From an uncultured delta proteobacterium (GTDB lineage: Bacteria > Desulfobacterota > Binatia > JACPRU01), in assembly GCA_963745025.1 (NCBI GenBank), contig CAVUWD010000010.1, positions 1 through 64,000 of the forward strand: DNA of 64,000 bases, in the 5' to 3' direction. Position 1 is the first letter of the stretch; the number at the start of each line of letters is the position of its first letter. The notes beneath the pieces were generated by a model. It had not been told where the DNA came from. It searched no databases and saw only the letters and a list, made by a program, of their open reading frames with translations. The position numbers and the translations under genes are program-made. Shown one piece after another: positions 3,522 through 64,000 of the stretch.

Positions 3522-4288
3522 TGGGCCCGGATTCGCATACCAATGCGCTTCACCGCGTGACAGGATTGTTTCACATTCGGCACGCTTCGCTCGCGCTCAC
3601 GCAGGCAGCGTTGCTCGCCGCCTGCAGCGGCGCGCTACGTGGAGCCAGCTCCTCTCCGGAAGTGCCTCGAAGAGCGGCCGAGCCAACCGCAGAGAGTCGC
3701 ACCGTTCGAGAAGGGAGCCCGCCCCTGGCAACGGCACCTTCCCCTCTCGCCGCGCCCGGGGCTTCCGCTGAGACGACCAACTTCATGTCGGGTGCGCCGG
3801 CAACCGGGGTGTCTCCGCCCCCTCCACCCTCCGAGCCGTACATGGCTCCCGCTGCGAACGCTCCCCCTCCACCCGCGGCGCCCTCGAGCGAAGCCCGCGA
3901 TCGACAGTTCGACATCCTGAACGAAGCCGTCGCCGCGCTCCGCCAAGAGGTCGCGCGCGGTTACCAGCGCGCGCAGGAGCTCGGCGAGCAAAACGAGTGG
4001 CTGCGCGAGTTGGTTACATCGCTGCGGCGCGATCTCCGCAAGAGCCGCGACCGGAACAAGTCACTCAATGATCGCCTCCAGTTGCTCCAGAAGAAGCTGC
4101 ACGAGATCAGCGCGCCACCGCCGGAAAAGACCGCGGTGACAGAGCCGAGAGGCGCGGCGTCTCCCGAAGAGAAGGCCACGCCCACCCCACCCCTGACGCA
4201 GCCCCCGGAGCAGCCTCCGGCGCGGGATCCGGCCAGCGCCGCGAGCGACGAGGGCTCCGCAGCGGCGCCCCAACGCAAGACCGATTAG
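3521..4288 (+). CDS. Putative lipoprotein with Pro-rich linkers and a coiled coil
   Basis: TAATG overlap with the upstream stop; LLAAC lipobox-like motif; heptad-rich segment FDILNEAVAALRQEV...LQLLQKKLHEI. Confidence 0.55.
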   Translation: MGPDSHTNALHRVTGLFHIRHASLALTQAALLAACSGALRGASSSPEVPRRAAEPTAESRTVREGSPPLATAPSPLAAPGASAETTNFMSGAPATGVSPPPPPSEPYMAPAANAPPPPAAPSSEARDRQFDILNEAVAALRQEVARGYQRAQELGEQNEWLRELVTSLRRDLRKSRDRNKSLNDRLQLLQKKLHEISAPPPEKTAVTEPRGAASPEEKATPTPPLTQPPEQPPARDPASAASDEGSAAAPQRKTD

Positions 4289-4296
4289 CGAACCGC

Positions 4297-4470
4297 TTGA
4301 AGCGAAAATAATTTCGGCCGAGAAAAACGTGCCGAGCCCGCACCCGAGCGCCAGACGAGTCGCGGGGTCGTCTTTTTGGATGCGTCGCGAGGTGCCTAGG
4401 AAGACGCTCGTGGCGGGCGAGTCGGGTGCGGGCTCGGCGCGCTCTGCGGGTCCAAGTATTTTCGTTTCAA
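4297..4470. mobile_element. MITE/REP-like inverted-repeat element, family A copy 1
   Basis: Ends TTGAAGCGAAAATAATT / AAGTATTTTCGTTTCAA (17-bp inverted repeat, 2 mismatches); perfect internal 17-bp IR GCCGAGCCCGCACCCGA / TCGGGTGCGGGCTCGGC; homologous copy at 33078. Confidence 0.7.
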
Positions 4471-5420
4471 GGCCAAGAACGCCTGCTCGCGCCAGCATCG
4501 ACGATGTCTGGCGGGGAGCGGAACACGCGTCCCTCGCCGTGCTCGAGGAGAGCGAGCTGCGACTCGAGGCCTGCTTCTCGAGCGAGCTTGTGAATCCAAC
4601 GCGGCGGCTCGTCTGGCGGTTCGTAAGAGAGCACGAACGTCCCCCAGTGAATGGGCACCAAGTAGCGCGCTCGCAAATCGAGGAACGCCCGAAACGCGTC
4701 CTCGGGATTCATGTGCACTCTTCGGAAGGAAACGGGCTGGTACGCGCCGATCGGCAGAACGGCCACGTCTATCGAGAAGCGCTCGCCGTAATCACGAAAG
4801 AGCGGCGTGTAGGCCGTGTCGCCGGGGAAGAACACCCTGCCCGACGGCCCTTCGATCAGAAACCCCGTGTAGCCACGTCGGTCCGGCAGCAGGCCGCGCG
4901 TCCCCCAGTGATTCACGGCGAGCGAGGTGATGCGGATGCCCTTGTGCTCGACGTGCCGTCCCCAACCGAGCTCGACGACCTTCCGATAACCGGCGCCCGT
5001 GACCAGATCGCCGAGATTTTCGGCGACGACCGCGATCGTGTCACGCTTCTGGAGGCGGTGGTGTGTGGAAACGTCGAGATGATCGTGATGACCGTGAGAC
5101 ACGAGGACGATGTCGAGATCCGGCAGACCGCCTTCCGGCAACCCCGGTGACACCAGGCGCTTCGCCACGAAAAGCCGCTGGGAAAGGACGGGATCCGTGA
5201 GCAGCGTCACGCCGTCGAGCTCGATCAGCACGGTTGCATGGCCGACGAAGGTCACGCCGATCTCGCCGCTGCCGACTCGCAGGCGCGGGCGACGCTTCGG
5301 CTCCCGCGTGGCGGCGAAGCTCGCACGCGCCAGGTGCGCGACGTAGCGCGCCACGCTGAAATCGGCGTCGACCCCCGGGCTCCGTGCGAAGAGGCGGCGC
5401 GGCTTTGAAGATGAGGTCAA
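4467..5420 (-). CDS. MBL-fold metallo-hydrolase (NAPE-PLD/RomA-like)
   Basis: GHATVLI, LLTDPV, SHGHHDHLD, FPGDTAY, LPIGAY and PIHWGTF motifs. Confidence 0.85.
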   Translation of the reverse strand: MTSSSKPRRLFARSPGVDADFSVARYVAHLARASFAATREPKRRPRLRVGSGEIGVTFVGHATVLIELDGVTLLTDPVLSQRLFVAKRLVSPGLPEGGLPDLDIVLVSHGHHDHLDVSTHHRLQKRDTIAVVAENLGDLVTGAGYRKVVELGWGRHVEHKGIRITSLAVNHWGTRGLLPDRRGYTGFLIEGPSGRVFFPGDTAYTPLFRDYGERFSIDVAVLPIGAYQPVSFRRVHMNPEDAFRAFLDLRARYLVPIHWGTFVLSYEPPDEPPRWIHKLAREAGLESQLALLEHGEGRVFRSPPDIVDAGASRRSWP

Positions 5421-5698
5421 CGCGTGAGGATCAGGAAGCGCTTCTTCAGCTCCGTCACCTGGTCCTGAATCGACGGCGAGCCCCGAAGGGTCATCAGCGT
5501 TTGGAAGACCTCGAGATCCCCCGCCTCGCCGTGGCGCTCGACGATCTCCTGCGCCGCGTTGGCGATCTCGCGAATCAGCCGAGGAACCTCTGCTTGCGGA
5601 ATGACCAAGTCGCCCCGGCTGAGAGTGCCGCTCCAGTTCGAAGCATACGGCCGTAGCACGCTGAGGATCCGTTCGGCGATAGCCTTGTTCCCGGACAT
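5417..5698 (-). CDS. Small hypothetical protein
   Basis: ATG at 5698 after GAGGAG-like purine run; 93-aa ORF whose stop overlaps the MBL gene start; typical codon usage. Confidence 0.6.
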   Translation of the reverse strand: MSGNKAIAERILSVLRPYASNWSGTLSRGDLVIPQAEVPRLIREIANAAQEIVERHGEAGDLEVFQTLMTLRGSPSIQDQVTELKKRFLILTR

Positions 5699-5823
5699 TG
5701 CTTGCTCTTCGTGCCGGGGCGAATCGTAACCTAGGGGTGGCGTGCTTTCAATCGAAGTTTCGGCCATCGCGCATTTCGCCTGCCCTCGCGTTCGCGTCGT
5801 TGACCCGCCGGCACCCCTTCCCT

Positions 5824-7176
5824 ATGAAGAAGATGCTCATGTCGGACACGCCGCTCCCATTTCGGCCCCGCACTTCCAGCCCCGTGGACCGAGCCTTGTC
5901 CAACATCGAAGCCCAAGCGACCGCCGTGCGTCGGCGGGTCAATCGATTCGCGCTCGAGCGTGCCGTTTTCCTGACAGGGGGCGCGACGCTTGTTGGCTTT
6001 TCGCTGCTCGTCGCTTTCGCCTTCATACTCTCCCGGCAAGGCTATGCGCTAGTGACGTGGCTGATTCTCGCGTCGTTGACGTTCGTCCTGTCGTCTGGTG
6101 TGCGCCGACTGCGCCGCGTCTGGCTTTCGGGAGCCGAGGCGCCTGTGATCATCGACCATCGAGTCGGTCTCGAGGATCGTCTGGCGACCCTGGTCGCGGC
6201 TTCGCCGAAGGTTCGACAGTCGCGACTCTGGGATTTCCTGCTGCACGAGAACCTACGGCTGCTGCCGCGCTGGGACCCGCGGCGGCTCGAGCCGCGAGCG
6301 ATGCCCCGCAGCGTCTGGTTCTTCGCGCTTTCCGTCTTGCTGGCGCTCTTCGCCCTCTGGATGACTCCCCGGCGCGGGGCGTTCGGCGGTGCGTCGCGTT
6401 CGGGGGTCGGACAAGACCAGCGCGAGCCGCAGGCGGGTGAAGACGAGCAAACCGCCGAAGAGACTCCAGACCTCGCTCCAGGCTCGTCGCTGTGGAGAGA
6501 CCTTCCCGAAAGTTTGCGGCAGGCGATCCTCGGGTCTCGAGCATCGCAGAACCTCGCGGGCGCGATTCCCGAAAAGACACTGCCCCTCGACGAGGACCGT
6601 GGCGGGCCAGCCATCGCTGGCAATCGCATGGCGAGCCACGGGCCGGTTCGATCCGCACCCGCCAGCCCCGATGCCGCTCGCCTCGCGGGCCGTGAAGGCT
6701 CCACGACGAACGGTGCGTCGGTGCCGAATGCGGCGCGTCCTCCTGCGGGGCAGGGAGAGCCGACGACGTCCTCACGCCCTGCGCGTGGTGAGGCCCCGAA
6801 GGAGCTCCGGCGCGTGGAGAGCGGGCGGGCGAAGATTCAGGCGCGTGCTCCGCAGGCGAAGGGCGGAGGAAGTGGCAGTGGTGGGGCGGGGGCCGGCAGC
6901 GGGGGCGACGCGGAAGGTCTCTATGGCGAGCGGCAGGCTTCCGGCCAGACGGCCGGCTCCTTCGCGCTCGACCTCGACGCGATGCGCAGCGCTCAGCCCG
7001 TCAAGGAGGGTGAGAACGATTCTCCGAGCGCACCGCCGTCGAGCCGGCTTGCCGACGATCAGCGCCTCGACGACGCCATTCGGCGCGCGCAGGTTCCCGT
7101 CGAGTACGAGAAGATCGTGCAGAGAATCTTCACTCGAGTTACCGAGTCTTCGGATCGGCCCGATCGGCAGGAGTGA
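5824..7176 (+). CDS. Membrane protein with 3 TM segments and a low-complexity Gly-rich C-terminus (MoxR-associated type)
   Basis: Hydrophobic segments; IDHRVGLEDRLAT motif; C-terminal VPVEYEKIVQRIF; GTGA overlap with moxR. Confidence 0.65.
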   Translation: MKKMLMSDTPLPFRPRTSSPVDRALSNIEAQATAVRRRVNRFALERAVFLTGGATLVGFSLLVAFAFILSRQGYALVTWLILASLTFVLSSGVRRLRRVWLSGAEAPVIIDHRVGLEDRLATLVAASPKVRQSRLWDFLLHENLRLLPRWDPRRLEPRAMPRSVWFFALSVLLALFALWMTPRRGAFGGASRSGVGQDQREPQAGEDEQTAEETPDLAPGSSLWRDLPESLRQAILGSRASQNLAGAIPEKTLPLDEDRGGPAIAGNRMASHGPVRSAPASPDAARLAGREGSTTNGASVPNAARPPAGQGEPTTSSRPARGEAPKELRRVESGRAKIQARAPQAKGGGSGSGGAGAGSGGDAEGLYGERQASGQTAGSFALDLDAMRSAQPVKEGENDSPSAPPSSRLADDQRLDDAIRRAQVPVEYEKIVQRIFTRVTESSDRPDRQE

Positions 7177-8216
7177 CCGTGGAGAGCGGTGAAAGGCTGA
7201 TCCTCGAGTTCCGCGAAACCTTCGCAAGCATCCTCGACCAGGTTTCCCGGGTGATCGTGGGGCATCGCGAGGTCCTCGAGCAGACCCTGGTGGCGTTCTT
7301 CGCGGGCGGCCACGTGTTGATCGAGGGAGTGCCTGGTACGGGCAAGACGTTGATCGTTCGTTCGCTCGGCGAGGCGCTCAACCTGAGCTTCAACCGGATT
7401 CAGTTCACGGTCGACTTGATGCCAGCCGACGTCACGGGAACCCGGATCATCCTCGATCGCGAGGACGGGCGGCGCGAGCTGGTCTTCGTCGAGGGTCCGC
7501 TCTTCAGCCACGTGCTGCTCGCGGATGAGATCAACCGCGCCACGCCGAAGACGCAGGCGGCTCTGCTCGAGGCGATGGCGGAGTTGCAGGTCACCGTGGC
7601 CGCCACGACGTACCGGCTGCGCCCTCCGTTCTTCGTCCTCGCGACGCTGAATCCGATCGAAATGGAAGGGACCTACCCACTTCCCGAGGCTCAGCTCGAC
7701 CGTTTTTTCTTCAAGGTACATCTTCCCTACCCGGGACACGCCGAGATGAAGAAGATTCTCGCAACGACGACCGGTGCGGACGCGGCGAAGATCGAGCCGG
7801 TCTTTCCTCGCGAGGACGCGCCGACACGCCTCGAGAACCTGAAGCGCCTGGTCCGCGAGGTGATGGTGGCACCGCATATCGAGGACTACGCCGCTGCCAT
7901 CGTGCGCGCGACGCATCCGGCAGGCTCGTCGTTCGTGAAGGAGGCCGACCTACCCGGTTTGACCAAGGACGAGTTCGTGAACAAGTACGTCAGCTTCGGC
8001 TCGAGCCCCCGTGGAGGGCAGGCCCTCATCCTCGCCGCGAAGGTCCATGCGCTGCTGGCTGGCCGAGCCAACGTCGCGGCGGACGACGTCGATCGTTCGG
8101 TGGTAGCGGCGCTGAATCACCGGCTGGTGCTCAATTTCGCGGCCGAGGCCGAAGGGGTGAACCCACGAATCATCGTCGAGCGGGCGCTCGCATCGGTGCG
8201 GAAGCTCCGCCGCTGA
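7173..8216 (+). CDS. MoxR family AAA+ ATPase
   Basis: GHVLIEGVPGTGKT, RIQFTVDLMPADVTG, LLADEINRATPKTQAALLEAM, NPIEMEGTYPLPEAQLDRF, SPRG. Confidence 0.92.
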   Translation: MTVESGERLILEFRETFASILDQVSRVIVGHREVLEQTLVAFFAGGHVLIEGVPGTGKTLIVRSLGEALNLSFNRIQFTVDLMPADVTGTRIILDREDGRRELVFVEGPLFSHVLLADEINRATPKTQAALLEAMAELQVTVAATTYRLRPPFFVLATLNPIEMEGTYPLPEAQLDRFFFKVHLPYPGHAEMKKILATTTGADAAKIEPVFPREDAPTRLENLKRLVREVMVAPHIEDYAAAIVRATHPAGSSFVKEADLPGLTKDEFVNKYVSFGSSPRGGQALILAAKVHALLAGRANVAADDVDRSVVAALNHRLVLNFAAEAEGVNPRIIVERALASVRKLRR

Positions 8217-58258: not shown

Positions 58259-59341
<1,083 letters not shown>

Positions 59342-59350
59342 AGGCCCCGT

Positions 59351-61210
59351 TTACCCCGCCGTCCAGCCGACCTCACGCAGGAGATACGAGAGGCGGCGCG
59401 GATCGTCGTTCAAACCTTCGCGCTGCGGCACGAAATAGCGAGACGCCTCCAGGTCGATCCGGACGACACCGCCCGCGGCCGGCTCGGCGAGCGGCACCAC
59501 CTGTTCGAAGTCGCCAGGCGGCAGCGGCGCATCCGCGATCAATCGCCCATTGCAGCGCACGCGCAGCGACTGCCCGCGTAGCGAGGCAAACACCTCCGGC
59601 AACGAGCCGCGGATGACGATGTGCTTGCCCGTGCGAGGCAACAACAGGCGTACCGTGGTCGTGGCCCAATCGTCGGCGTACCAGCCTTCCCAACGCACGA
59701 GTGTGCGGAGAACGAACCACTTCCAGATGGGAAACAGCAGGGTGGCCCTGCGGCTGAGGCGCTTCCACATCCACTCTGGAAATCGCCTGCGCAGCACGTT
59801 GAAGAATGTGTCGATGCCGTAGCATAAGTACGCGGGCGGATAGCGCAGTGTCCCGTGACGGCGCATGATACCGACGAGCTCACGAAAACGCGCCAGCCCC
59901 CCACTCGCGGTCTTCGTCGAATCGTACTCCCGCTGAATGGCCATCTCTGCCGGCACGTACGCCAGGTCATACCGCTTGGCGATGCGAATGAATAAGTCCC
60001 AGTCCATTCCCCACTCGAGGCTCTCGTCGAGAAGGCCCACGTCGTCGAGCACGCTGCGCCGCACGTAGACCGTCGGTTGTAGGAGGTAGTCGGAGTAATA
60101 GATGAACTTCCACAGATTGAAGCGGCCCGCCTTCGGAAACGCCCCCTTGATCGAGCCGTCCTCCTCGGCGAGATAGCCGTCCCCGTACACGGCGCCGACT
60201 TGTGGTTGGCGAGCGAAGGCATCGACGGCCATCGATACCGCTCGCGGCATCAGCAGGTCGTCCGAGTTCACCCAACACACGATGTCGCCCCTCGCGCGCT
60301 GAAACCCCTTGTTGATCGCGTGCGATTGGCCGCGGTCGCGCTCGCAGGCCCATACCAACCGGTCGCCGTACTCGGCGACGACGTCGGCGGTCTCGTCGGT
60401 CGAGCCGCCGTCGATGATGAGGTGCTCGATGTGCGGGTAGTCTTGATGGAGCACGCTCTCGATCGTATCGCGGATGAAGCGACCTTGATTGAACGACGGA
60501 GTGACCACCGTGACGAGCGGTCCGTCCACCTCCCGCTTGCGGTTCGCGTAGCCGAAGCGGCGCATCGCGCCGCCGTGTCGAGCCCAGAACAGATCTTCCA
60601 GCTCGGCTGACATTTGGCCGCGGTGACCGCCGATTCGTCCTTCGCGGAAGCCGCCGGGCGACCATCGACGCAAATCCGTGAACGAGGGAACCACCCCACC
60701 GATCGACGGCATGCGAATGCCGAGGGCTTGCAACGCCTCGTTCAAGACCGGGATAGGATCGGCGATGAGGTCCTCGAAGCGGATGTGAGCCGTCGGCGCC
60801 TTGCGCCGACCCCAAACGAGCGCGTGCCGGCCCCACCCGCCGAAGTAGGCGTCGGTGCAAACGAGCTCCCGGAGGACGCTCGCGAAGAGGTCCGGCGACG
60901 ATGGATCGACGTGCTTCTTCTCGTACTCTAGAACGAAACGCGCGTAGGAGACGAGCGAATCGCGACCGTCGCGCACGACGTGGATCGCTCGATGGTCGTC
61001 CTGCCCAGGGAGCTCATGGGTCTTGACGAGGAACAGTTCGGGAGACGGTGCCATCTCGGCGAGACGCCGCGGGCTCGCGAGCCCCGCGTTGATCTCCTTG
61101 TCCGCGGTCTCCTCGTAGATCGAATAGGTCGCGCGCCCGAACAGCCTGCCGAACAGAACGCGGAGAAAGGTATTCCCGGAGCGCGGGTACGACGCCAACC
61201 AGAGAATCAA
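59351..61210 (-). CDS. Sulfotransferase - GT2 glycosyltransferase fusion
   Basis: LASYPRSGNTFLR (5'-PSB), KTH, VRDGRDSLVSY (3'-PB), RFEDL; then VTVVTPSFNQGRFI, DGGSTD, DRGQSHAINKG, NSDD, MDWDLFIR. Confidence 0.88.
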   Translation of the reverse strand: MILWLASYPRSGNTFLRVLFGRLFGRATYSIYEETADKEINAGLASPRRLAEMAPSPELFLVKTHELPGQDDHRAIHVVRDGRDSLVSYARFVLEYEKKHVDPSSPDLFASVLRELVCTDAYFGGWGRHALVWGRRKAPTAHIRFEDLIADPIPVLNEALQALGIRMPSIGGVVPSFTDLRRWSPGGFREGRIGGHRGQMSAELEDLFWARHGGAMRRFGYANRKREVDGPLVTVVTPSFNQGRFIRDTIESVLHQDYPHIEHLIIDGGSTDETADVVAEYGDRLVWACERDRGQSHAINKGFQRARGDIVCWVNSDDLLMPRAVSMAVDAFARQPQVGAVYGDGYLAEEDGSIKGAFPKAGRFNLWKFIYYSDYLLQPTVYVRRSVLDDVGLLDESLEWGMDWDLFIRIAKRYDLAYVPAEMAIQREYDSTKTASGGLARFRELVGIMRRHGTLRYPPAYLCYGIDTFFNVLRRRFPEWMWKRLSRRATLLFPIWKWFVLRTLVRWEGWYADDWATTTVRLLLPRTGKHIVIRGSLPEVFASLRGQSLRVRCNGRLIADAPLPPGDFEQVVPLAEPAAGGVVRIDLEASRYFVPQREGLNDDPRRLSYLLREVGWTAG

Positions 61211-61265: not shown

Positions 61266-61460
61266 TCAGTTGACGCCCGCCGAGGACGTCACGCGCAGCA
61301 CTTCCTCGATCGTCGTCCACCCTTGCCGGACCTTCTCGAGGCCGCCGCGGCGAAGCGTCGTCATACCGAGGGCGATCGCGCGCTTGCGCAGCTCGTCCGT
61401 CGTGGCCAGCGCCATCACCAAGCTCCGCATCTCCTCGGCCATGGCGAGCACCTCGTTAGA
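61266..61460 (-). pseudogene. C-terminal remnant of a GspE/PilB secretion ATPase
   Basis: EVLAMAEEMRSLV...ELRKRAIALGMTTLRRGGLEKVRQGWTTIEEVLRVT; no Walker motifs upstream. Confidence 0.7.
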
Positions 61461-61561
61461 AGGCGAGCCCGAGGGCTGATAGAGCACTAGCCGAACGCTA
61501 GCAGGAAGCACCTCGTCAGGAGGATTGTCCCAAGCTCTCTCTTTTTGTGAGACACTAGACG

Positions 61562-62302
61562 ATGCGTACCGTCTGCATGCTGAACTCTGGAGAAGTCCAC
61601 GTCTGGTGCGCCCGCCCCGAAGAGGTTGGGGGCGAGGCTGACGGTCGTCGGCTGCTTGCCGCCGACGAGCTCGAACGCTCGGCCCGCTATCGCTTCGAGT
61701 GTGACAAGCGCATGGCCGTGGCCACCCGAGTGCTCTTGCGGACGGTGCTGTCGCGGTACGAGGCGGTCGCACCATCCGACTGGCGCTTCTTCGTCGAGGG
61801 GTACGGTCGTCCGGTTATCGCCGACGGCCGTAGCTCGCTTCGCTTCAGTCTGTCGAAGACGGAGGGGCTCATTGCCTGTGCCGTGGCGCGCACGGTGGAT
61901 CTGGGCGTCGATGTCGAGTGCCTGAGACGAAGGGCGCCGCTGGAAGTGGCCGACCGCTTCTTTGCCCCGGCCGAGGTAGCGGCGCTCCGCGCTCTGCCCG
62001 AGCCGGTGCGGCAGGGCCGCTTTTTCGACTACTGGACCCTCAAGGAGAGCTACGTCAAGGCACGCGGCCTGGGCCTGACGCTGCCGCTTCAGAAGTTCTC
62101 GATTGTTCTCGACGAGGGATCGCCGCGCATCGAGATCGATCCGTCGCTCGGCGACGACGGCGCCCTTTGGCAGCTCGTGCAACTGAGGCCGACGCAAGAG
62201 CACGTCCTGTCGCTTTGCGTGCGCAGGCGGGGAAGGCAAGATGTGAAGGTCGTGCTGCGATGGCATCCGGACACCGCGCTTCCTGCCGAAGCGCGCCCGT
62301 GA
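61562..62302 (+). CDS. Sfp-type 4'-phosphopantetheinyl transferase
   Basis: EVHVW, YGRP, FSLSKT, LGVDVE, FFDYWTLKESYVKARGLGL. Confidence 0.92.
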   Translation: MRTVCMLNSGEVHVWCARPEEVGGEADGRRLLAADELERSARYRFECDKRMAVATRVLLRTVLSRYEAVAPSDWRFFVEGYGRPVIADGRSSLRFSLSKTEGLIACAVARTVDLGVDVECLRRRAPLEVADRFFAPAEVAALRALPEPVRQGRFFDYWTLKESYVKARGLGLTLPLQKFSIVLDEGSPRIEIDPSLGDDGALWQLVQLRPTQEHVLSLCVRRRGRQDVKVVLRWHPDTALPAEARP

Positions 62303-62370
62303 ACAGCTGAGTGGGTCCGCAGCGGCGCGCTCGAGCGCCACTCTCGTTGGTCTCGCCGCGAGTGCAATCG

Positions 62371-64000
62371 ATGGACGACAGGATCAATCTCTTCTACGAA
62401 CAGACGCGGCTTCTCAACGGACGTGAGATCGTCGAGCGACCGCACTGGAACACGCTTGCTTCGGTAGATGCGATCCGGCATTTCGCCTACGGAACCAGCG
62501 ACGACAATCCGCTCTGGCTAGACGAAGCCTACGCCGCAGCCACCCCGCACGGGGGACTCCTGGCGCCTCCGGCCTTCGTCTGCTCGGTTCTCTATCCCTT
62601 CCTGCACGGGGCCGCCGTGGACGCGCCATTGGTAAGCCTCATCGGCGAGATCTCGGTCGATTGGTTTCGTACCATCCGAGCGGGCGACCGCTTACGGGCG
62701 ACTTCGCGGCAGACCGACGTCACGGAAGCGTTGGATCGCCGCGGGCGGCGCATCTTCTTCGTCCTCGCGGAGACGACGTACTGGAACCAGGACGATGCAG
62801 TGGCCGCGACGGCCAAGGGCACGATGGTCCGGATCGCGCGTGAGGAGAACGACCTGCTGTTGGATCGGGAGATGAGCCGCTACTCCGAGGGGGAGCGGGA
62901 TGCCCTGCGGCGGGCGATCGAGGACGAGTCGCGCGCCGGGCCGGCATCGCCCACCGGCTCGGACGTGTGGGTAGGTATGCCGCTGCCCGTGATGATGCGC
63001 GGTCCGCTCACCATCGGCGATCTCGTTTGCTGGCAGGCAGCGATCGGGCCGTCCTACCGGGCGGGAAGCCTCGGCTATCTCGATGCGGTGAAGGCGCCGC
63101 ATACCGCGGCGGTGAACCCGGTCACCGGCTGGCCGGTCAAGTATTCCCAGCAGCACGAAGACTTCCTCCTCGCGGCGCAGCGGGGCATGCCGGCGCCATT
63201 CGACAACAGTCTCATGCGGTTCGCCTGGATCGCTCCCTTGCTGACGGACTGGATGGGGAACGAAGGCTTCCTGAAACGGCTCAGCGTGCAGACCGGGGCT
63301 CCGCTGATTTACGGGGACGTGACCTGGTATCGCGGCGTCGTCGTTGAAAAGCGCCCGGCAACGACGGGCGATGCGGTCGACGTGCGCATCCGCATCGTCG
63401 GTGTCAATCAACTCGGGGCCACCACGACCACCGGTGAGGCCGTCGTCACGCTTCCAGCTCGACGGCTGGGCCTGCGCCCCCGGCGATCGCCGACACGCGT
63501 CGTCCAACGACGGGAACAACGACGAAACGGAGAAACGCTGCTCGATCGATTTGCCGCGGCCGCGCAGGCGCATGGCGACAAAGCCGCGCTCATCGGACGG
63601 CGGGAGTCGGTCTCTTTCGCCGAGCTGGATGCGCGGTCCGATCGGGTGGCGGCGCGGCTGGCCGCGATGGGTTGCGGGCCCGGCACGGTCGTCGGACTGT
63701 CGTTCCCGCGCGTGCCGGATTTGCTCGTGGCGATGCTCGGTGTGCTCAAAGCGGGGGCCGCGTATCTGCCGCTCGAGTGGGAAGCGGCCGCGGAGCGCAC
63801 ACGGGCCGTTGTCGATGCGGTTGGGCCGGCCGTCGTCATCCACGCGGGGGATGGCGCGCCGGGCGGCGCGGCTTCGGCGGCACGCGACTACGGAGGCAGG
63901 GCGGCGGCGTGGCGGGAGCTCGATGCGCATGACGCGCGCGCGGTTCCGTGGCAACGGAGGAATCCCGAAGAGCGGGATGTGGCCTACGTGATGCCGACTT
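62371..64000 (+). CDS. Double hot-dog (MaoC/FAS1-like dehydratase) fused to an NRPS-type adenylation domain; runs off the window (not in the ORF track)
   Basis: Stop-free from ATG 62371: DAIRHFAYGTSDDNPLWLDEAYA...LAPPAF; HED...RGMPAPFD...LTDWMG..G.L; then A1 SFAELDARS, A2 LKAGAAYLPL and the start of A3 VAYVMPT. Confidence 0.85.
   Translation, partial: MDDRINLFYEQTRLLNGREIVERPHWNTLASVDAIRHFAYGTSDDNPLWLDEAYAAATPHGGLLAPPAFVCSVLYPFLHGAAVDAPLVSLIGEISVDWFRTIRAGDRLRATSRQTDVTEALDRRGRRIFFVLAETTYWNQDDAVAATAKGTMVRIAREENDLLLDREMSRYSEGERDALRRAIEDESRAGPASPTGSDVWVGMPLPVMMRGPLTIGDLVCWQAAIGPSYRAGSLGYLDAVKAPHTAAVNPVTGWPVKYSQQHEDFLLAAQRGMPAPFDNSLMRFAWIAPLLTDWMGNEGFLKRLSVQTGAPLIYGDVTWYRGVVVEKRPATTGDAVDVRIRIVGVNQLGATTTTGEAVVTLPARRLGLRPRRSPTRVVQRREQRRNGETLLDRFAAAAQAHGDKAALIGRRESVSFAELDARSDRVAARLAAMGCGPGTVVGLSFPRVPDLLVAMLGVLKAGAAYLPLEWEAAAERTRAVVDAVGPAVVIHAGDGAPGGAASAARDYGGRAAAWRELDAHDARAVPWQRRNPEERDVAYVMPT

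Follow-up and report, generated by a model that had tools for sequence, protein, structure and literature searches.

The 64,000-nucleotide stretch of DNA analyzed here (the window) ends inside an open reading frame in which a double hot-dog domain stands in front of an NRPS adenylation (A) domain, and this raises the question of whether such a protein exists as one enzyme and what it would make. The gene at the window end is a real, conserved fusion of a hot-dog domain to an NRPS loading module, and it is uncharacterized. The features on which this description rests are as follows.

61562..62302, + strand: Sfp/HetI-type 4'-phosphopantetheinyl transferase (PPTase), 246 aa (Pfam ACPS, AASDHPPT_N)
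62371..63999, + strand: first 543 codons of a gene for an NRPS initiation module with the order hot-dog-A-PCP, an open frame running into the window end
62371..63456, + strand: double hot-dog (MaoC/FAS1-DH-like), residues 1-362 (Pfam, alignment A1, AlphaFold2, Foldseek)
62500-62502 and 62515-62517, + strand: Asp44 and Trp49 of the N-half motif SDDNPLW
63139-63141 and 63154-63156, + strand: Lys257 and His262 of the invariant C-half motif VKYSQQHED
63457..63549, + strand: Arg-rich interdomain linker LPARRLGLRPRRSPTRVVQRREQRRNGE, approximately residues 363-393 (translation), variable among relatives
63550..63999, + strand: N-terminal part of the A domain, residues 394-543 (Pfam AMP-binding, TIGR01733)
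63982-63999, + strand: A3 motif AYVMPT, the final residues of the window

A Conserved Fusion at the Window End

The frame has no stop from GTG 62311 or ATG 62371 up to position 63999 and encodes 543 aa from ATG 62371, the start that the first-pass annotation had chosen and that agrees with the N-termini of relatives (P0001, for example, begins MDDTIDLF; alignment A1). P0001, the best relative, is 86% identical and has 1001 aa with FAS1_DH, AMP-binding, AMP-binding_C and PP-binding domains; full-length relatives span approximately 990–1030 aa, and the window covers the first 54% of the initiation module. The layout proposed by the same annotation also holds within the window: the motifs it quoted for the two hot-dog halves are present (IRHFAYGTSDDNPLWLDEAYA; HEDF..RGMPAPFDN..LLTDWMG), the Arg-rich linker follows at the point where the alignment becomes ragged and the pLDDT drops at the end of the AlphaFold2 model, and an A domain comes after it.

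Could the fusion be an artefact of assembly or sequencing, either a chimera or a missed stop between two genes? The gene does run off the window end, and in the closest locus (L013) the fused gene is split by indels into three frames. Against this, the hot-dog and A domains share one frame here, intact single genes are found at eight independent genome loci from five phyla (L001–L007 and L018, with only L013 broken), and approximately 100 protein clusters from several sources have the hot-dog-A-T order, so that an artefact is effectively refuted.

The Sfp-type PPTase reported 68 nt upstream of ATG 62371 on the same strand is likewise there. It has an ACPS domain (PF01648, 4e-18), an N-terminal pseudo-repeat (AASDHPPT_N, PF22624, 4.2e-05, with 24.1 bits below the 27-bit cut-off) and the size of approximately 240 aa by which it is counted as Sfp-type, and its match to the NCBIfam HetI model (1.6e-37, 129 bits where the cut-off is 370) makes it HetI-like rather than HetI itself. 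It is 75% identical to the PPTase at 9244-9969 of L013, located just before the fused gene there. Because positions 61581-63998 are the only stretch of the window syntenic with L013, the PPTase travels with the fused gene.

The Double Hot-Dog Domain

The Pfam model FAS1_DH_region matches residues 31-147 (E 1.3e-13), and MaoC_dehydratas matches residues 27-118 with 26.5 bits, just short of its 27-bit cut-off. The AlphaFold2 model (pLDDT 84.6, pTM 0.86) has two units, each a helix with a four-strand sheet, and the best Foldseek matches, all at probability 1.00, are double hot-dogs of 325–353 aa (5i7n with E 9e-19, 4v12, 4e3e and 8hgn). Model and matches together give the two-lobed MaoC/hydratase-2 fold.

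The hydratase-2 motif places a catalytic Asp and a catalytic His five residues apart. In alignment A1, which comprises 42 hot-dog domains, fused and free, only approximately 50–67% identical overall, this pair is complete in neither half: the N-half has Asp44 but Trp49, and the C-half His262 but Lys257, all four being invariant. Catalysis could therefore differ from that of the classical enzymes or have been lost. In the alignment with 4v12 and 5i7n, His262 takes the place of the motif His, and we argue for a preserved active site because the whole block K257-Y-S-Q-Q-H-E-D264, together with R271, D278, N279 and R283, is invariant across all 42 diverged domains.

The Adenylation Domain and Its Pocket

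The window end truncates the A domain: residues 394-543 correspond to positions 1-170 of the 384-position AMP-binding profile (E 2e-24), and TIGR01733 matches as well (4.4e-21). Its A3 variant AYVMPT is common to P0003–P0005, P0010 and P0012, and since more distant members carry the usual YTSG(S/T)TGxPK, we regard it as the trait of a subclade and not a defect. In P0001 the domain is near-complete, with a match to AMP-binding profile positions 2-383 of 384, AMP-binding_C, A8 GRSDLRVKIRGQRVE and A10 PRNAAGKVDR; the A5 motif in the family is a variant, NL(Y/F)SQTE. The profile match in the window and the motifs of P0001 identify an NRPS A domain of the ANL superfamily.

In amino-acid A domains, Asp235 (GrsA numbering) of the A4 motif FDxS binds the alpha-amino group of the substrate. 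The window ends before A4, and the pocket is known from relatives that are 40–86% identical. When the LgrA motifs FDGSALD and FDISVAE are aligned against the family motif FSASVRQ, a Ser falls opposite the LgrA Asp, and this Ser occupies position 235 in 95 of 95 aligned relatives. Positions 235/236/239/278/301/322/330 read S/A/R/D/T/L/G in the same 95 domains, where 278, 299 and 301 are numbered by what we take to be the GrsA scheme, transferred by way of the alignment with LgrA; FSA[SAG]xRQ is found in 100 of the 102 proteins P0001–P0102. Read from these alignments, the pocket (Ser235, Ala236, Arg239, Asp278, Thr301, Leu322, Gly330, Thr331) is non-canonical. Rather than contacting the substrate, Arg239 might form a pair with Asp278. 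The A domain of the partner module retains FDAS, and its pocket in L013 and L002, presumably D-A-L-W-L-G-G-T-F in this numbering, resembles what we take to be the Val code.

The suggestion of the first-pass annotation that the enzyme activates an acid is a better fit than an amino acid, because the pocket of the relatives lacks the Asp that binds the alpha-amino group. On this basis the A domain would take no alpha-amino acid, and the pocket suggests a single small, conserved carboxylic acid that most likely bears another anionic group, for instance a C4–C6 dicarboxylic or hydroxy-dicarboxylic acid.

Distribution and Downstream Modules

Across the clusters with the hot-dog-A-T order, variants carry a TE, a C-A-T module or FkbM, and a methyltransferase is embedded in some (P0025, P0030). 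Fused members occur in cultured cyanobacteria (Aerosakkonemataceae BLCC-F154, Roseofilum reptotaenium CS-1145) and in many uncultured phyla. A carrier domain, expected downstream from the start, lies beyond the window end here and is present in all 10 relatives scanned (PP-binding at 914-977 in P0001, 2e-16). Five of the nine fused loci continue with a C-A-T(-TE) module: a C-A-T-TE gene comes directly after the fused gene in L013, L002 and L004, and in L006 and L018 the module is part of the fused protein itself. Its position as the next gene in L013, the closest locus, bears out the view of the fused gene as the start of a biosynthetic cluster. The shortest fused forms consist of only two modules; L006 (one polypeptide) and L002 (a gene pair with its own PPTase) are two-module systems. 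In L018 the fused gene comes after a protein ending in a C domain, and if the modules there act in the order of their genes, the loaded unit would have to carry a nucleophile.

In a search for proteins of similar length, FSA[SAG]xRQ was present in 19 of the 93 examined; ten of the 19 have hot-dog motifs, six are N-terminally truncated fragments, and three (P0403, P0407, P0425) are ambiguous, on short contigs. Unfused sister A domains have related pockets, SSRDLAMGI (P0401, P0404, P0406, P0408), AVRDAVIGF (P0400) and ALRDVIIGV (P0405). A HMMER search with the A-T part of L002 gave, among the 150 matches listed (ranked by summed score), only giant multi-module NRPSs of 4,837–7,864 aa. A tie to the neighboring sulfotransferase-GT2 gene was considered and rejected: a homologue (35–40% identity) adjoins the fused gene at just one other locus, L001, and two of 10 fused loci, the window included, are too few for a claim.

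The first-pass annotation knew of no characterized example of this architecture. Our full-text literature search found no characterized member of the hot-dog-A-PCP family either, and no paper it returned contains an N-terminal double hot-dog with the pocket S-A-R-D-x-T-L-G-T.

Free Relatives and the Origin of the Fusion

The hot-dog also exists as a free protein of approximately 365 aa. A CoA ligase or CoA-transferase lies within 5 kb, usually adjacent, at 45 of 55 standalone loci, many of which come from related Binatia genomes so that these counts are not independent, and at none of the nine fused loci. The partners are succinyl-CoA-synthetase-like ligases (13 loci) and CoA-transferases of family III (29) and family I (4), with two kinds at L022. 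In L012, for example, the genes of a free hot-dog and its neighboring ligase are at 4278-5495, 5479-6372 and 6393-7508. TctA is found near 27 of the 55 standalone hot-dogs and a fumarate-reductase/KstD-like flavoprotein near 25, neither of them near the nine fused loci. As the CoA-enzyme partners score under every curated NCBIfam cut-off, "dicarboxylate" is a class-level guess.

In the tree, a branch supported at 100/99 sets all nine fused hot-dogs, that of the window included, apart from the others; the fused hot-dogs thus form one clade, and the tree shows a single origin of the fusion. The hot-dog would then be descended from a free enzyme that worked beside CoA ligases or CoA-transferases, and because of this descent the A domain and PCP would take the place of ligase and CoA.

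Comparison with Known Systems

Mycobacterial fused HadA/HadB-like MaoC dehydratases (5i7n, 4v12) are the best structural and sequence-profile matches. As in the HadAB and ChsH1-ChsH2 heterodimers, the N-half resembles the non-catalytic partner (HadA/ChsH2) and the C-half the catalytic one (HadB/ChsH1). These enzymes differ in that they are only 18–19% identical, act on long-chain or steroid acyl thioesters and retain Asp and His, and the NCBIfam model fused_HadA_HadB gives 36 bits against a cut-off of 350.

The mesaconyl-CoA hydratase MeaC/Mch (8hgn, 4e3e) and the itaconyl-CoA hydratase PaIch (8huc, 8khg) are also single-chain double hot-dogs of approximately 350 aa with the active His in the C-half. 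The resemblance is of fold only (Foldseek E 5e-15 to 1e-11, TM approximately 0.5–0.6, identity only 10–11%), with no match of the hot-dog to the NCBIfam/Pfam models for mesaconyl-CoA or itaconyl-CoA hydratases. The substrates of MeaC and PaIch are small dicarboxylic acyl thioesters, and there too another residue stands in for the classical Asp; MeaC uses Asn226 and His231, while Arg142 binds the distal carboxylate (PMC10164722). The hot-dog of the window differs from MeaC in having Lys, not Asn or Asp, at the -5 position, and from both enzymes in being fused to A-PCP, so that the thiol carrier would be the PCP and not CoA.

On the NRPS side, the fused gene is like the initiation modules for keto-, hydroxy- and aryl-acids (and the NRPS-like A-T-TE/R enzymes), with an A-PCP opening the assembly line and Asp235 replaced; the next C domain would similarly N-acylate the following residue. 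Such non-amino-acid modules have Gly, Val or Asn at 235 and are tailored by KR or Ox domains placed after the A domain. AmbE of Pseudomonas aeruginosa (AMB biosynthesis) has an N-terminal domain of unknown function, 461 aa, before A-MT-T (PMC4357302, PMC8949500), for which no conserved-domain match is reported (PMC4357302). The embedded methyltransferase of P0025 and P0030 recalls this A-MT-T order. AmbE is not among the listed relatives of the window gene, and the Pseudomonas locus L066 is not AmbE-like but an unrelated acyl-CoA-synthetase-like ORF.

Proposed Function and Its Alternatives

Our main reading, to which we give a probability of roughly 0.55, is that the hot-dog-A-PCP protein loads a non-amino acid, (de)hydrates the carrier-bound acyl group, and passes it to a downstream module that adds an amino acid. 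The acid would be adenylated and then loaded onto the PCP, which the adjacent PPTase would prime; the N-terminal hot-dog would act on the carrier-bound acyl group; and a C-A-T-TE module, expected here on the model of L013, would couple the modified group to a single amino acid and free the product. The fused gene would thus probably supply a small peptide with an unusual acyl cap. We infer the substrate class, the (de)hydration and its direction, the downstream module in this genome and the product. More tentatively, and with the odds against it, the family may be a new kind of NRPS starter in which a C4–C6 dicarboxylate of the fumarate, malate, itaconate or mesaconate type is (de)hydrated on the carrier to give an electrophilic enoyl- or hydroxy-acid peptide cap, a CoA-pathway hydratase having exchanged ligase or transferase and CoA for A and PCP once and then spread horizontally to at least five phyla, with uncultured lineages and cyanobacteria making up most of its hosts.

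The alternative that weighs most on the hot-dog itself is that it is no (de)hydratase, serving as a non-catalytic scaffold, docking or substrate-holding domain or having another activity such as editing thioester hydrolysis or isomerization. The incomplete Asp/His pair is compatible with this, as is the presence of Rv0216 (2bi0), an entry titled "conserved hypothetical protein," among the Foldseek neighbors of the model. We consider it unlikely in view of the invariant residues in all 42 domains, the alignment of His262 with a catalytic-motif His, and the flavoprotein next to the free form, which amounts to a desaturase-hydratase pairing. MeaC, moreover, is active with Asn instead of Asp (PMC10164722).

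It is also conceivable that the substrate of the A domain is a beta-hydroxy alpha-amino acid (Ser, Thr or beta-hydroxy-Asp), which the hot-dog then dehydrates to a dehydro-amino acid on the carrier. Relatives go by the name "amino acid adenylation domain-containing protein" in the source databases (others by "FAS1-like dehydratase" or "acyl dehydratase"), the closest PDB structures, LgrA among them, are amino-acid A domains, and Asp278 could bind a differently placed amine; yet the Ser at 235 is without exception in the family, whereas the partner module keeps FDAS, and the neighbors of the free hot-dogs are CoA ligases or transferases and carboxylate transporters, not amino-acid genes, which leaves this explanation very unlikely. 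The same neighbors, being enzymes of CoA pathways, would suit a hot-dog that acts in trans on a CoA thioester and makes or recycles the free acid for the A domain. That arrangement has a slim chance, as fused loci have no such CoA enzyme nearby, a CoA product would have to be hydrolyzed before adenylation, and a fusion of single origin kept across five phyla fits action in cis.

Significance

A hot-dog (de)hydratase before the first A domain is absent from the short, well-known list of NRPS tailoring domains, and standard specificity predictors would not assign a substrate to the invariant pocket of this family. The two-module minimal forms lead one to expect a small, tractable product. The free hot-dog with its CoA ligase or transferase, set against the fused hot-dog with its A-PCP, would be a natural example of a step of primary metabolism moved onto an assembly line, and the pairing offers a first clue to the function of a large "acyl dehydratase" family without an assigned reaction.

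Domain Layout of the Fused Gene

Two features on the forward strand occupy the end of the window, and the Pfam matches within the second define its layout.

61562-62302, +: PPTase ORF, 246 aa; 4'-phosphopantetheinyl transferase (Pfam ACPS, 4e-18, and N-terminal PPTase domain)
62371-63999, +: open frame, 543 aa, from ATG 62371 without a stop up to the window end
Residues 27-147 of the frame, +: FAS1_DH_region/MaoC match (Pfam)
Between the hot-dog and AMP-binding parts of the frame, +: Arg-rich linker (translation)
Residues 394-543 of the frame, +: AMP-binding match (Pfam, profile positions 1-170 of 384)

The gap between the PPTase ORF and ATG 62371 is 68 nt, with GTG 62311 as an in-frame alternative start, and the PPTase is closest to HetI in NCBIfam, yet far under the cut-off of that model. 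Since the AMP-binding match reaches only profile position 170 of 384, the window end truncates the adenylation (A) domain, and the final six residues of the frame are AYVMPT. The first-pass annotation, which had described an Sfp-type PPTase upstream, a stop-free frame with hot-dog, Arg-rich linker and partial A domain, and an A3 variant AYVMPT, is right in every detail that could be checked. Shortly past the window end one would expect a carrier domain, because PP-binding is present in relatives with the same order: ten relatives have hot-dog, AMP-binding, AMP-binding_C and PP-binding in succession (Pfam). We assign this architecture a probability of about 0.9.

Reality and Origin of the Fusion

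About 100 clusters with the same domain order came out of a search for longer proteins, the nearest being P0001 (86% identity, 1001 aa) and P0002 (81%, 1007 aa). Variants carry an added TE (P0031, P0061), an added C-A-T or C-A-T-TE (P0020, P0014), a nitroreductase-type domain (P0063), or an FkbM-type methyltransferase inserted near the A-domain end (P0025, P0030). In P0025, P0027, P0030, P0040 and others the methyltransferase separates the beginning of AMP-binding_C from the PCP, which suggests that in those lineages the acyl group is O-methylated once loaded or hydrated.

Scanning a single genome of each species yielded 66 loci; in L001-L007 and L018, tblastn with P0001 shows the fused gene in a single frame. 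Because of these intact genes and the roughly 100 clusters, an assembly artefact as the source of the fusion can, on the sequence evidence, be excluded for practical purposes, and the fusion proposed from the window alone is real. The L013 copy (84% identity) is spread across three frames; this closest genomic relative (L013 10001-12980) is split over frames 2/1/2/3, probably through indel error in that assembly rather than as a pseudogene.

In a maximum-likelihood tree of 42 hot-dog domains, calculated without the frameshifted L013 and without 22 of the 55 free loci, the nine fused domains (window included) form one clade (support 100/99), which indicates a single origin of the fusion. Within the fused clade the window groups with Desulfobulbales, Hydrogenophilales and Solirubrobacterales, and the other half consists of cyanobacteria and Nitrospirales. 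Since this pattern departs from the phyla, it suggests horizontal spread of the fused module.

Double Hot-Dog Fold and Catalytic Residues

The first 370 window residues were aligned with 8 fused and 33 free relatives. The AlphaFold2 model from this alignment is confident (pLDDT 84.6, pTM 0.86) and has two helix-plus-sheet lobes, with residues ~215-280 poorly modelled. The top Foldseek matches in the PDB are single-chain double hot-dogs: the mycobacterial MaoC-like dehydratases 5i7n (E 9e-19) and 4v12, the Chloroflexus MaoC protein 4e3e and the mesaconyl-CoA hydratase MeaC (8hgn), followed by Rv0216, fungal FAS dehydratase, hydratase 2 and itaconyl-CoA hydratase PaIch. Together, model and matches bear out the two MaoC-like halves claimed earlier. 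Sequence likeness to solved structures is weak (E ~0.01 for the single sequence, 2e-7 to 1e-4 for the family profile), the N-half resembling HadA/ChsH2 and the C-half ChsH1/HadB.

The block V-K257-Y-S-Q-Q-H262-E-D and R271, D278, N279 and R283 are invariant in 42/42 sequences. His262 aligns opposite the H-W-D histidine of 4v12 and 5i7n, and Lys257, five residues before it, stands at the classical hydratase Asp position; in the N-half the pattern is reversed, with Asp44 kept and Trp49 replacing His. Although the hot-dog family thus lacks the strict MaoC hydratase motif (Asp plus His), the residue conservation argues for a predicted active enzyme. MeaC carries Asn where this family has Lys257 (PMC10164722), which shows that the classical Asp position tolerates change in enzymes acting on dicarboxylic thioesters.

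The Substrate Pocket

Aligned with LgrA, P0001 has FSASVRQ opposite FDGSALD and FDISVAE, so that Ser replaces the alpha-amino-binding Asp, with Arg four residues further on. We aligned 95 family A domains out of 102 proteins, chosen by a loose A4 pattern that left position 235 free. Positions 235/236/239/278/301/322/330 are S/A/R/D/T/L/G in all 95. At 331, T is found in 92, and 299 is variable (L 65, F 12, M 8, others); the numbers 278, 299 and 301 follow the GrsA sequence as we take it to be. FSA[SAG]xRQ occurs in 100 of the 102 whole sequences, and A5 reads NL(Y/F)SQTE in place of NxYGPTE. Because the pocket is invariant over five phyla, it would mean one substrate for the whole family, and the loss of Asp235 together with the gain of Arg239 points to a carboxylic acid with an anionic group, in agreement with the earlier proposal that the enzyme activates an acid.

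The closest hot-dog-free A domains belong to A-T-TE or A-MT-T proteins of ~905-923 aa, with related pockets also without Asp235 (SSRDLAMGI, AVRDAVIGF, ALRDVIIGV). AYVMPT in the window places it in a subclade with AYVM(P/A)TSGTxxAPR; more distant family members have the standard YTSG(S/T)TGxPK.

Free Hot-Dog Proteins and Proposed Chemistry

A free hot-dog of ~365 aa, 48-60% identical, is found in 55 of the 64 loci carrying the domain, named at source only "acyl dehydratase" or [quoted passage not shown]. Neighbours were identified by Pfam in 13 free loci and then counted by tblastn against all loci.

Neighbours within 5 kb of the free hot-dog (55 free loci; counts are not independent because many are from related Binatia genomes)
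Any CoA ligase or CoA-transferase: 45
Family III CoA-transferase: 29
Succinyl-CoA-synthetase-like alpha+beta pair: 13
Family I CoA-transferase: 4
TctA carboxylate transporter: 27
Fumarate-reductase/KstD-like flavoprotein: 25
PrpD-like protein: 3

Three kinds of CoA-activating enzyme recur across different lineages, directly adjoining the hot-dog in most free loci (L022 has two kinds). The partners are closest to succinate/malate-CoA ligases or formyl-, succinate-glutarate- and mesaconate-type CoA-transferases, all under NCBIfam cut-offs. In none of the nine fused loci does any of these CoA enzymes, TctA, the flavoprotein or the PrpD-like protein lie near the fused gene. On the simplest reading, the free hot-dog would (de)hydrate a small carboxylic acyl-CoA, and in the fused form the A domain and PCP would replace ligase or transferase and CoA. 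We give this chemistry about even odds.

An operon of family III CoA-transferase, free double hot-dog, fumarate-reductase/KstD-like flavoprotein and TctA recurs in L035, L037, L040 and ~22 more loci, and is frequent among genomes of Binatia and Thermodesulfobacteriota. It is apparently undescribed so far and probably serves as a catabolic route for some carboxylic acid.

Gene Neighborhood of the Fused Loci

In 5/9 fused loci a second module comes directly after the first; in L013 and L002 both the C domain (HHxxxDG) and the A4 motif (FDAS) of this partner are normal.

Arrangement at individual fused loci
L013: PPTase, fused gene, then 1312-aa C-A-T-TE protein
L002 (Hydrogenophilales): fused gene, C-A-T-TE, then PPTase
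L004 (cyanobacterium): A-T, fused gene, C-A-T-TE
L006: whole arrangement in one 2332-aa protein
L018 (Nitrospirales): fused module runs on as C-A-T, preceded by other NRPS genes
L003, L005, L007: without NRPS neighbour
L001: 250-aa C-terminal extension without Pfam match

At the nucleotide level, L013 aligns (76%) with a single stretch of the window, 61581-63998, which comprises the PPTase and NRPS gene. Just before it, a 79-aa stretch (61266-61505, -) matches the T2SSE type II/IV secretion ATPase profile over its last 53 positions only (318-370 of 370; E 7e-5, 22.1 bits against a cut-off of 24.9), and looks like what is left of the 3' end of a secretion-ATPase gene, the 5' portion of which would fall at the present PPTase site. 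Because synteny with L013 begins at 61581, beside this putative remnant, the PPTase-NRPS unit may be an insertion at this place.

Further upstream lie a 619-aa sulfotransferase and family-2 glycosyltransferase fusion (59351-61210, -) and a GDP-L-fucose-synthase-like epimerase/reductase (58355-59341, +; NCBIfam 4.5e-90, under cut-off), preceded by housekeeping genes for ATP synthase alpha and gamma, two M16 peptidases, a YfhO-like membrane protein and an ETF fusion. L001 4862-6706 encodes a homologue of the sulfotransferase-glycosyltransferase fusion (35-40% identity over both halves), directly after the fused NRPS gene and before Wzm/Wzt-type ABC transporter genes. A tie of the fused gene to glycan decoration is possible but unsupported, since this neighbor occurs in only 2/10 fused loci, the window counted among them.

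In L018 (6246-16189), a 2040-aa NRPS and an A-T-C protein ending in a C domain precede the hot-dog-A-T-C-A-T protein. At this locus the position of the hot-dog module may be internal; if so, its substrate would have to carry a nucleophile.

Implications

The full-text literature searched, which covers few subscription journals, contained no description of a hot-dog/MaoC domain fused to an NRPS A domain, in line with the first-pass view that the architecture was not known as characterized. Among described proteins AmbE comes nearest, through an N-terminal domain that is unexplained; the likeness is one of description. The original observation is confirmed, and its interpretation is supported overall by the architecture, the conserved fusion and the acid-type pocket. 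The fused gene is, as judged from its relatives, a member of a sizeable uncharacterized family and not a one-off, and would represent an NRPS initiation module that combines a tailoring domain with a specificity pocket, for which we found no prior description.
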